Assembly: GCA_963823665.1 (NCBI GenBank)
Contig: CAWGMQ010000006.1
Coordinates: forward strand, 448,001-512,000
DNA length: 64,000 nucleotides
Source: an uncultured Planctomycetota bacterium
Lineage (GTDB): Bacteria; Planctomycetota; Planctomycetia; Isosphaerales; Isosphaeraceae
Direction of reading: 5' to 3'
The notes under the pieces are model-generated. The model ran no database searches. It saw nothing but the letters and a program-made list of their open reading frames with translations, and was not told the origin of the DNA. Positions 22,698 to 24,758 of this stretch are shown here, in pieces (within the stretch, counting starts at the first letter, position 1; every line of letters begins with the position of its first letter). Position numbers and translations under genes: made by a program.

Positions 22698-24758
22698 ATG
22701 ATCGCAAAACGGCTGGCAGAAGCTCTAGGGGATGTGGCAGTCGCGGCCGGGATCCGTAACGAAGGTACGGAGGTGGCATGCGAGGCAGAGCAACTTTTGA
22801 GCGAGCCGGTCACATGGTTTCTACGCCATCCGAACTGGCCATCGGGTTTGGCGCCACGCAACGTCCCCATCGAGCTGTCGATCTCCATTGCGGGTGACGG
22901 TACGCCCTGTCTGAGGTATTCGGCCGACGGTACTGACCACCGCCTTGGCCTTGGTGGGAACTGGGCGCGGTATCTGCGCGAAGCCACTCGTCTGGCGTCT
23001 GAGGTTGGTGTCTCGCCCGCCGCCGTATGGAAATTACTGGCCACGGTTCTGGACGGTGCGCCGCCACTGTTTCGGTCGCGGCTCACCCATGGGGTAGGGT
23101 ACGCTGCGGGCGGCGAAAAGAGGGTCTCTTTTTATTTCAGCACTCGTTGGCTCACCGATCCCAACTTCAGAGACCGGTTTCCTGAACTCGCCGATTCCGT
23201 TCAACAGGCAGCCGATTGCTGGGGCAGTCCCGCCCCACCCTATTTCGATGGCCTCGCCTACGACCTCCCCGGTCGAGGAACGAATCTCAGGACGAAGCTT
23301 TACCACTGGCTTGGCGATGACCAGCCTTTGCCTCTCTCTCAAATGGTTGGACGGCATCCCGATCTGGCGCCGGCGGAGATGGTCTTCGACCACTTTCTTT
23401 CATCTAACCCGCCACCGGTTCTGAGCGGCTCTCTCTTGCTGCAGTGGAGCGTTCTCGAACCCGGTACCCCTTGCCGCCAAAAACTCATGTTTGAGTGCAC
23501 TCGATGGGGCTGGGGAAATCCGCAGCCGTATCTCGAGCTTCTTTCGTTTCTCTGTCGCCGATTCGAGATGAACCTCGGCCCCCTTCATGCGATGCTCGCG
23601 GTTTTCGCGGAGTACGGGATCTCACTCAAACCGACACTCCTTGCCATCGAACCGGGGACAGTCCAGCCCTCAGTCACTTTCTACTTTTGTCCCATTCTTG
23701 AAGAGCCAGTTCGGTGGACCGCCACGCCCGCTGTTACGAAGGCCTCGCCACAATCGACACACAACAGTCGCATGATTGTGGTTGAAGAAATGACCACGGC
23801 TGCGACCGACTTCTTGCTCAGCGAGAAAGAGAGAGACGGCCACTGGGTGGATTTCGGGCCTCCAACCGGGCCATCGAACGTGTGGGTGACTGCATACGTC
23901 GCGGCCATCTTGTCCAGGATGACGGACCTGCACGCCGAGCTTGCTCACCCGGCCCGGATTCTGAAAACCTGGTTTCGGCCGGGTCACGGCTGGGGTCAGA
24001 ACGGCGACTCTCCCGCGGACGCGGATTCGACGGCGCTGGCCCTGCTGGCGCTCCAGCGGTTGGGCCAACCACTTCCCGCAGGGGCGTCTGACTGCCTTGC
24101 GCTCTATCGTCTCGATGGAGGAGGCTATCGTCATCAAACCAATTCGGACGTGGACGATGAGCAAGGGACTGGCGCGCCTGAAATCACAGGGCTCGCTCTG
24201 CTGGCCATGCTTGAAACCGGGATGTCAGACGCGGGCCTGGTGAACGGCACCGTCGAGAACCTGGTCTCTTTGCAACGACCAGAGGGCGGGTGGAATGCGT
24301 TCTGGTGGAAGGATGACCTGTTTGCGACTTGCCGGATCTTGCACGGACTGAATGCGTACGTCCGGTCCCACATTGCCACGGGTTCGGGGCTTCAGACGCC
24401 GGAGGCAGTGTACCAATCGGCAAAGCAAGCATTGGAGAGGGCTCGCCCCGGCGTCTCGGCGCAAGCCGTATCGGATGATCCGCTGATTCTCGGTCTTTGG
24501 CTCAGCAGTTGGTTGGCCGCCGGAGGCAGCCCTCATTACCACAGCGTCGGCCGAATGCTCAGCCGACTTACGGCACAACAGCAGACGGACGGGCGGTGGC
24601 TTGCCTCGCCGAGCCGGCGGATCGCGGGCACGATGCTCAGCCGGCCCTGGGCGCGCTCAGACTCGGGCCAGTTGTTTCTCGACGCGCGGTGTCTCGTCAC
24701 GACCGCGACGGTACTGGAGGGCCTGTGGTCACTGCTTCTGGCTCTCAGGAAGGCATAA
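22698..24758 (+). CDS. Two-domain enzyme: Trp-dimethylallyltransferase-like (ABBA) prenyltransferase fused to a class II terpene cyclase / prenyltransferase-squalene-oxidase-repeat domain
   Basis: N-half: PNWPSGLAPRNVPIELSISIAGDGTPCLRYSAD, HGVGY...RVSFYF, LAYDL...RTKLYH resemble bacterial DMATS strands. Pro/Thr/Ser linker at ~23705-23790. C-half: FLLSEKERDGHWVDF...SNVWVTAYV, GWG...PADADSTA (24018-24032), and QW-type repeats LQRPEGGW and QQQTDGRW. Confidence 0.75.
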   Translation: MIAKRLAEALGDVAVAAGIRNEGTEVACEAEQLLSEPVTWFLRHPNWPSGLAPRNVPIELSISIAGDGTPCLRYSADGTDHRLGLGGNWARYLREATRLASEVGVSPAAVWKLLATVLDGAPPLFRSRLTHGVGYAAGGEKRVSFYFSTRWLTDPNFRDRFPELADSVQQAADCWGSPAPPYFDGLAYDLPGRGTNLRTKLYHWLGDDQPLPLSQMVGRHPDLAPAEMVFDHFLSSNPPPVLSGSLLLQWSVLEPGTPCRQKLMFECTRWGWGNPQPYLELLSFLCRRFEMNLGPLHAMLAVFAEYGISLKPTLLAIEPGTVQPSVTFYFCPILEEPVRWTATPAVTKASPQSTHNSRMIVVEEMTTAATDFLLSEKERDGHWVDFGPPTGPSNVWVTAYVAAILSRMTDLHAELAHPARILKTWFRPGHGWGQNGDSPADADSTALALLALQRLGQPLPAGASDCLALYRLDGGGYRHQTNSDVDDEQGTGAPEITGLALLAMLETGMSDAGLVNGTVENLVSLQRPEGGWNAFWWKDDLFATCRILHGLNAYVRSHIATGSGLQTPEAVYQSAKQALERARPGVSAQAVSDDPLILGLWLSSWLAAGGSPHYHSVGRMLSRLTAQQQTDGRWLASPSRRIAGTMLSRPWARSDSGQLFLDARCLVTTATVLEGLWSLLLALRKA

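Follow-up and report, generated by a model that had tools for sequence, protein, structure and literature searches.

A predicted DMATS-type prenyltransferase-cyclase fusion encoded with a radical SAM enzyme and a RiPP precursor in an uncultured planctomycete

Very few enzymes are known for cyclic-terpene peptides. The closest described system is NctPC. A 2026 review presents it as an MstE-like cyclase joined to an ABBA-barrel prenyltransferase, with geranylgeranylation of Trp (C20) followed by cyclization of the chain (PMC13290415). The same review gives ChrPC as its counterpart with an isoprenyl diphosphate synthase (IDS) fold, likewise fused to a cyclase, and describes ChrPC, ComQ and PalQ as trans-IDS-like Trp prenyltransferases. 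The NctPC study is also cited, for prenylation after lanthipeptide ring closure, in the paper on MppC, the ABBA prenyltransferase of a Moorena lanthipeptide (PMC12715784). Here we analyzed a 64,000-nucleotide stretch (the window) of contig CAWGMQ010000006.1 from an uncultured Planctomycetota bacterium, in which an open reading frame (ORF) of 686 aa, stop-free from 22698 to 24758 on the + strand, was predicted to join an N-terminal ABBA barrel of the DMATS clan to a C-terminal MstE-like class II terpene cyclase. This fusion ORF is the last of three same-strand genes, preceded by one for the precursor of a peptide made on the ribosome and modified after translation (RiPP) and one for a radical S-adenosylmethionine (SAM)/SPASM enzyme. 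We consider it probable that the ORF encodes a bifunctional RiPP maturase, by which a thioether-bearing peptide would be prenylated on a core aromatic residue and the prenyl chain then cyclized.

The motifs on which an earlier note had proposed a fused ORF were all present in the single 686-aa frame. They were PNWPS...PIELSIS...LRY (residues 45-74) and RVSFYF (142-147) in the N-terminal half and WVDF (383-386), WVTAYV (396-401), GWG (431-433), DADST (441-445) and QW-type motifs ending at W532 and W634 in the C-terminal half. The barrel (residues 1-335; 22698..23702), assigned by profile match and model, is followed by a disordered linker (336-355; 23703..23762), with a predicted local distance difference test score (pLDDT) of <50 at 336-354 and a length that differs between homologues, and then by the monodomain cyclase (356-686; 23763..24758). 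A search of 5.8 billion proteins with the fusion ORF yielded 20 matches, including nine that were near full length (77-100% of the ORF aligned, 37-66% identity); one homologue is labeled Candidatus Hodarchaeota. A 493-aa record was 100% identical to the ORF across the domain junction. When the N-terminal half alone was used, 92 clusters were obtained, 50 of which carried the cyclase half too, while 24 were of stand-alone length and 18 were fragments or other forms. An assembly chimera was rejected, and the fusion was taken to represent a real family, because of the near-full-length homologues, the identical junction-spanning record and the fused clusters.

Among the genomes examined, the full fusion was detected in 1 of 401 genomes of its own phylum, in which 21 other matches were weak and cyclase-only. 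The barrel was detected in none of 301 genomes of a cyanobacterial phylum (11 cyclase-only matches, with three candidates scored per genome), in 2 of 301 genomes of the Desulfobacterales phylum searched and in 1 of 120 genomes of the family of a second planctomycete, whose locus is designated L002. A plasmid search for a prenyltransferase homologue found none, and a further candidate for a homologous locus (L003) was rejected as a 14-residue chance match. Single-sequence family scans of the ORF were weak and all below cut-off (PF11991, E 0.09; TIGR03429, E 0.036; PF13243, E 3e-5), the two DMATS models scoring 12.6 bits against a cut-off of 25 and 13.3 against 163.85, respectively.

Profile searches with the N-terminal half matched exclusively DMATS-type chains (MpnD, E 3e-8; 5-DMATS, E 6e-7). 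The domain was folded alone from a 29-row alignment and compared with 48,161 solved chains. The model had a pLDDT of 94 and ten strands in five pairs, and its best structural match was MpnD (Z 25.7, root mean square deviation [rmsd] 3.4 A, 321 residues), followed by CymD (Z 25.2), TleC (23.9) and 6-DMATS (23.8). All 19 matches with a Z of >8 were ABBA enzymes, the next fold reaching 7.3; 12 DMATS-type entries scored 20.8-25.7, whereas seven other ABBA entries, including AmbP1, 7FHB, PagF, CloQ and PatF, scored 14.9-16.5. On this model, the N-terminal half is a member of the ABBA superfamily that lies structurally nearer DMATS than NphB/CloQ or the cyanobactin F enzymes, in agreement with the DMATS kinship first read from its motifs. 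A ComQ-type domain was rejected, since ChrPC, ComQ and PalQ have an all-helical IDS fold with Asp-rich motifs and the N-terminal half is a ten-stranded beta-barrel.

Conservation was counted over 44 fused homologues, selected as the fuller-length rows from both protein searches. The barrel residues were near-invariant, being retained in the following numbers of rows: E59, 43; R73, 44; R142, 37; Y146, 43; R198, 35; K200, 42; Y202, 40; Q249, 42; K/R262, 40; and Y329, 43. A dead barrel was rejected on these counts. Mapped by sequence profile, they correspond to E, R, Y, R-x-K-x-Y and the final Y in 5-DMATS. Overall, the indole DMATS enzymes (MpnD, TleC, CymD, PriB, IptA, 5-/6-DMATS) share with the fusion ORF the fold (Z 23.8-26) along with P-x-E-x-S, R, Y, R-x-K-x-Y and a Tyr of the last strand, but identity is 14-20%, far below family cut-offs, and they differ from it in having neither a fused cyclase nor a RiPP context. 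A further difference is the strand-4 Lys, the altered basic residue that RVSFYF had brought to attention, whose column holds Lys in none of the 44 homologues (Ser in 23, Thr in 15), with an Arg, R142, two residues upstream. The strand-8 Tyr column is mostly Phe in homologues and Met (M264) in the fusion ORF. Judging from these alignments, R142 and K262 may stand in for the altered basic residues, and the smaller barrel residues might make room in the cavity for a longer donor. The lack of diphosphate-binding residues that the earlier note had raised as a concern does not seem to be borne out; because R142 and K/R262 are kept, five basic residues (R73, R142, R198, K200 and K262) remain at the putative diphosphate end.

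The C-terminal half matched the monodomain class II cyclases 6IJ1, 8PAJ, 8PAK and MstE (E 3e-12 to 2e-6). In a full-length model (pLDDT 79), residues 355-685 formed one (alpha/alpha)6 domain and no gamma domain, so that both folds anticipated from the motifs were recovered in structure models. Cyclase matches had Z values of 29.7-32.5 over 280-297 residues, including 8PAK (Z 32.5, rmsd 3.1, 296 residues), 8PAJ (32.2), drimenyl diphosphate synthase (31.2) and MstE (30.5, rmsd 2.6, 287 residues). With MstE and other monodomain cyclases (6SBB, 6IJ1, 8PAJ, 8PAK), the C-terminal half shares the single-domain architecture, a DxD-S/T motif and the WxDF, WVTAY, GWG, WW and TTATV motifs. A DxD motif in place of DxDD is described for MstE (PMC12414744). 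The second Asp of DADST (24018..24032), D443, was assigned to the column of MstE D109 because the D109N chain reads DANTT and the wild type DADTT in the alignment, and the proposal of DADST as an MstE-type acid motif was thereby upheld. The C-terminal half differs from MstE in being fused, in both lid segments being shortened, the stretches with Y157 and R337 being shorter or not alignable, and in the Glu that most of its relatives carry as the acid. Glu or no acid at the D109 column beside a conserved barrel (P0033-P0091) constitutes a possible series of Glu-catalyzed or inactive cyclases, a natural series for studying cyclase loss or changed chemistry.

The precursor gene (20986..21222, +; 78 aa) has a GTG start preceded by a GGAG site, an in-frame TTG 6 nt upstream of that start and homologous small ORFs ahead of the radical SAM gene at four other loci (L002, L005, L036 and L037); it is single copy in its own genome. 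The conserved leader motif LWxAx[LI][DN][MLI]A[ILM] (residues 32-41; 21079..21108) is presumably an enzyme-recognition site. The core motif Y61-L-D63-W64-N65-C66-G-C68 (21166..21189) offers, by comparison with other loci, Y61 (else W64) as candidate acceptor and D63-C66 and N65-C68 as candidate thioether pairs. The radical SAM/SPASM peptide maturase (21271..22629, +; 452 aa; PF04055, E 7e-18) has CxxxCxxC at 105-112 and seven conserved SPASM cysteines and is 46-77% identical to four cassette homologues. At third codon positions, the G+C content of the three genes was 0.66-0.68, and 12 further long window ORFs had values of 0.70-0.88. A search of 60 relatives did not find the radical SAM gene; these two findings suggest recent transfer of the cassette. 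No protease, exporter or prenyl synthase gene was seen in the cassettes, the host genome carrying its two polyprenyl synthases elsewhere, and a promoter/terminator scan detected nothing above chance.

Precursor, radical SAM and prenyltransferase genes occurred together at all five close-homologue loci with readable upstream DNA, namely, the window, two loci of one planctomycete genome (L002 and L037), one of a Desulfobacterales genome (L036) and an archaeal-looking metagenome contig (L005). L002, from a Planctomycetaceae genome, encodes a 66%-identical orthologue of the fusion. The barrel and cyclase halves at L036 lie on two contigs, each at a contig end, and are at most a candidate fusion. 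L005 has two precursor copies and looks archaeal from its TATA-like box, ribosome-binding site and flanking PRK04334 and LysM-type matches, families that we take to be archaeal. In L005 (2430-3630), the precursor gene was duplicated along with several hundred bases of upstream DNA, and this locus has the shortest precursors, of 43 aa, starting three residues ahead of the leader motif. L037 encodes a stand-alone prenyltransferase and two more radical SAM enzymes, a second SPASM-type and a B12-dependent one, and its genes (4139-13001, +) resemble a more elaborate, uncharacterized RiPP cluster. At a distant barrel homologue (L051; 1317-3248, +), the barrel gene is followed by one for a separate helical-barrel-like protein and adjoined by a serine protease gene.

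The six precursors of these cassettes are 43 to 80 residues long, and all have the leader block and a CxC core. The cores read YLDWNCGC (window), FYDNHGCDC (L002), FYDNCDC (L037), WGDGNCQC (L036) and YHDTCDDCDC and YANTCDDCDC (L005). A core Trp was present in four of six, at three different places, and absent from both L005 precursors; the L002 and L037 precursors end in Trp. W64, found in the window precursor only, was rejected as a family-wide acceptor because it is not conserved. As a control, we scanned 64 loci that carry a related radical SAM gene (60 viral, 4 plasmid), and none had a prenyltransferase match. Thirteen were examined (one a duplicate and one without a candidate). The remaining 11 gave 16 candidate precursors, selected by eye; these have D/N-to-Cys patterns that were often aromatic-free N/D-x-x-C repeats. 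A Tyr or Trp one or two residues before a core D/N was found in 6/6 precursors of prenyltransferase loci versus 0/16 controls, a pattern chosen after the data had been seen. This difference suggested that the D/N and Cys residues are the radical SAM substrate and the adjacent Tyr/Trp the prenyl acceptor. From this comparison, we give the Tyr/Trp just before D/N (Y61 in the window) roughly an even chance of being the core acceptor; W64 is a possible but less probable acceptor, and W33, the sole Trp common to the six precursors, is a highly improbable one, lying inside the conserved leader block. Counting against the assignment, identity to the control radical SAM enzymes is no more than 30-41% and their leaders are different, 4 of the 16 control peptides have a Tyr elsewhere near the Cys region, the control locus L070 has F-I-D-T-N-C-S-C without a prenyltransferase, and the six precursors are non-independent (two are tandem copies and two share a genome).

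The radical SAM enzyme probably makes Cys-Asp/Asn thioethers, as judged from its motifs, its family matches and the substrate pattern. Its best NCBIfam model was TIGR04463 (215 bits, below the cut-off of 525), as for the other cassette enzymes (208-221 bits), and Cys-rich-peptide maturase models scored 148-215 bits, compared with 105 bits for the PapB model (cut-off 340) and 50-54 for cyclophane-synthase models (cut-offs 425-445). The nearest solved relative was 5WGG, which we take to be CteB. Cys-Asp and Cys-Asn ranthionines provide thioether precedents (PMC11002830). The cassette resembles the ranthipeptide-type systems (PapB, CteB, QhpD, the streptococcal Cys-Asn enzyme and the TIGR04463/Clo7bot/CefB types) in having a radical SAM/SPASM gene next to that of a peptide in which Cys lies three residues from D/N, and differs in that its enzyme falls below every curated cut-off and in the prenyltransferase partner that the radical SAM relatives at the 64 scanned loci lack. 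Some of these relatives (L058-L064, L070 and L118-L121, from viral contigs and plasmids), next to short N/D-x-x-C-repeat peptides, appear to form an under-described group of thioether RiPPs in their own right.

In the pathway that we propose, the radical SAM/SPASM enzyme would bind the precursor and form Cys-to-Asp/Asn thioether rings in D63-W-N65-C66-G-C68. The barrel would then ionize a prenyl diphosphate on R73/R142/R198/K200/K262, shielded by a reduced tyrosine set (Y146, Y202 and Y329), and alkylate an aromatic core side chain, most likely Y61, else W64. The donor would have to be C10 or longer because cyclization requires that length, and it would probably be farnesyl diphosphate (FPP) or geranylgeranyl diphosphate (GGPP) of the host. 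In a third step, D443 would protonate the distal alkene and close a polycyclic terpene on the peptide. Leader removal and export would be left to host enzymes absent from the cassette, and the pathway would yield a lipopeptide with both thioether rings and a cyclic terpene. The folds, the barrel residues, D443 and the recurring cassette were observed, whereas the substrate, donor length, acceptor, ring chemistry and order of steps are inferred. Leader-dependent ABBA prenylation after ring closure has a precedent in MppC (PMC12715784). Like MppC, the fusion would probably act on a leader-bearing, ring-closed precursor; MppC, compared by description only, differs in being stand-alone, having a Nif11 leader and a LanM partner, and geranylating Trp (PMC12715784). 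Complex prediction for the barrel and precursor scored 0.01 and was used neither for nor against this scheme.

Several observations weigh against the bifunctional maturase. One DMATS Tyr position (M264) and one Arg position in the last strand (S325) are altered, and solved DMATS enzymes, going by their entry titles, mostly use C5-C10 donors. Of the 44 fused homologues, only 9 have Asp in the D443 column, while 26 have Glu and 9 some other residue. In the C-terminal half, both MstE lid segments (those with Y157 and R337) are abbreviated, with low model confidence at the second, and the capping loop is ∼11 residues shorter (pLDDT <50 at 638-661). The frame of the L002 fusion gene changes inside the cyclase half (∼9580), by a sequencing error or by real loss. 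In L037, a precursor of this family is accompanied by a stand-alone prenyltransferase, and the 13 kb examined contain no cyclase gene; L051 (E 1e-6) has neither such a cassette nor a precursor within 3.2 kb. The cyclase is the less secure half of the fusion ORF, and the chief rival explanation is that only the barrel is catalytic: it would prenylate the peptide, the product would keep a linear prenyl chain, and the C-terminal half would be a decayed cyclase or one repurposed for lipid binding or shielding. A catalytic column that is non-Asp in 35/44 homologues beside near-invariant barrel residues fits this explanation, as do many truncated or diverged C-terminal halves among the homologues, the 24 stand-alone-length clusters, the cyclase-free L037 cassette and the shortened lids. 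The fusion ORF itself keeps DADST, however, and the nine Asp rows all fall within the 11-row branch holding it (weak support, 82/64). Furthermore, a sister DMATS-like fusion group retains DADST in 7/7 rows, and a shorter lid could be an adaptation to a peptide-bound substrate. We regard loss of cyclization as unlikely and prefer the bifunctional maturase.

An alternative for the ring chemistry is a cyclophane synthase of the triceptide type: the radical SAM enzyme would link Y61 to D63, and the barrel would afterwards prenylate the cyclophane, W64 or some other residue. All six precursors contain an aromatic-x-D/N triplet, again a pattern chosen after the data had been seen, and YxdB (Tyr-Asp) and OscB (Trp-Asn/Asp) are precedents (PMC11002830). 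The model scores given above favor Cys-rich-peptide maturases over cyclophane synthases, however, the nearest solved relative is 5WGG, the relatives without a prenyltransferase have aromatic-free N/D..C repeats, and CxC is kept in all six precursors. A cyclophane thus seems quite improbable, and thioether formation is retained in the proposed pathway.

It is very unlikely that the fusion works separately from the peptide genes and, in the manner of DMATS enzymes and MstE, converts free Trp, Tyr or a phenol to a small-molecule meroterpenoid. The closest solved structures do all act on small molecules, and E59, the DMATS acceptor-binding Glu, is kept in 43/44 homologues; against this, at 5/5 close loci across distant taxa the fusion or prenyltransferase gene is immediately preceded, on its own strand, by the precursor and radical SAM genes, and no aromatic-acceptor gene was seen there. 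Least credible of all is a reverse order, in which the C-terminal half would first cyclize FPP or GGPP to a drimenyl- or copalyl-type diphosphate for transfer by the barrel to the peptide: drimenyl diphosphate synthase is structurally tied with MstE (Z 31.2 versus 30.5), but profiles are nearer the monodomain MstE type (E 2e-27 to 5e-35) than drimenyl diphosphate synthase (E 3e-20), and transfer precedes cyclization in NctPC (PMC13290415).

As in NctPC, an N-terminal ABBA barrel and an MstE-like cyclase are combined in a RiPP pathway in the fusion ORF. The earlier note had regarded the published fusion partners as IDS-fold and an ABBA partner as an independent solution; the novelty argument fails because the ABBA/MstE-like fusion NctPC is already in print (PMC13290415), and an independent solution may hold only narrowly, for a DMATS-clan barrel with a cyclase on a separate branch, if NctPC is as assumed below. 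The two may differ in acceptor, which is Trp in NctPC, whereas 2/6 cassette cores have no Trp. For further comparison, a cyanobacterial prenyltransferase-cyclase fusion encoded between an NHLP precursor and LanM (L049), which came from the search of the 301 genomes of a cyanobacterial phylum, served as a proxy, its NctPC type being assumed, in place of the NctPC sequence itself. The NctPC product reportedly comes from a cyanobacterial proteusin, in work by Hubrich and colleagues that appeared in Chem in 2024. By this proxy, the NctPC type would be NHLP/LanM-linked, whereas the cassette has a radical SAM partner and a leader other than NHLP/Nif11. No LanM gene adjoins the cassette, and none of four precursors scanned matched an NHLP/Nif11 model or any other NCBIfam precursor family; the L049 precursor scored 124 bits on TIGR03793.

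The N-terminal domain of L049 had ABBA-like Atlas features (leads <0.9), and its barrel had no detectable similarity to the fusion-ORF family (hhalign probability 0.3 and 0.07), compared with 96.1 for a positive control, the second DMATS-like fusion group. The L049 cyclase was much nearer MstE (E 2e-111) than was the fusion-ORF cyclase (2e-27). A midpoint-rooted tree was built from 35 cyclase domains, including those of the 22 family rows (of 44) that were selected because their cyclase halves are intact. A 100/99 branch set the fusion-ORF family apart from the rest, and the cyanobacterial type grouped with stand-alone MstE-like proteins (100/99). This fits, but does not prove, separate fusion events. 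By analogy, the fusion ORF may work like NctPC, and its membership of the NctPC family is doubtful by proxy. L049 (7110-15765, -) encodes a tandem-NHLP precursor, two PhyH-like dioxygenases, the fusion, LanM and exporter proteins; related fusions are P0019, P0021 (Pedobacter arcticus) and P0022, with a split form in L039. The second group with a DMATS-like barrel and MstE-like cyclase (P0014-P0018, P0020 and P0136) has DADST throughout and is distant from the fusion-ORF family.

What looks new relative to NctPC is a barrel dissimilar to that of the L049 type, a radical SAM partner, a core Trp that is not conserved and a conserved Tyr/Trp before D/N. A tentative extension is that the family is a separate prenyltransferase-cyclase lineage, in which a DMATS-clan barrel has switched from small indoles and C5 donors to long-chain prenylation of a peptide Tyr, followed by polycyclization, on a radical-SAM thioether RiPP, through a minimal three-gene cassette common to planctomycetes, Desulfobacterales and archaea. 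To our knowledge, there is no earlier tyrosine-anchored cyclic-terpene peptide and no such archaeal pathway, so that, if this extension holds, each would be the first, although subscription papers may differ. No report linking radical SAM, a DMATS prenyltransferase and a RiPP was found in the literature, in which subscription papers or supplements may list the family; if the NctPC study already does so, the radical SAM pairing and the acceptor question remain. Confirmation would add a terpene-thioether RiPP class, hint at comparable products in uncultured archaea, mean that barrel and cyclase were fused more than once and supply a long-chain peptide-lipidating tool from a well-studied scaffold. 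The system is compact (a short precursor and two enzymes), and the Trp-free L005 cores provide a clean test case for a new acceptor.

Downstream of the cassette (24992-46904, -), three abutting ORFs of 4408, 485 and 2451 aa, the largest without a Pfam match, look like the fragments of one very large surface protein with repeats. Immediately before the cassette (2842-20688, +) comes a run of Tc-toxin-like ORFs (PF20220 in 14525-18673 and PF18276 in 18526-20688), which overlap consecutively in different frames, as if the genes had been fragmented in the assembly.

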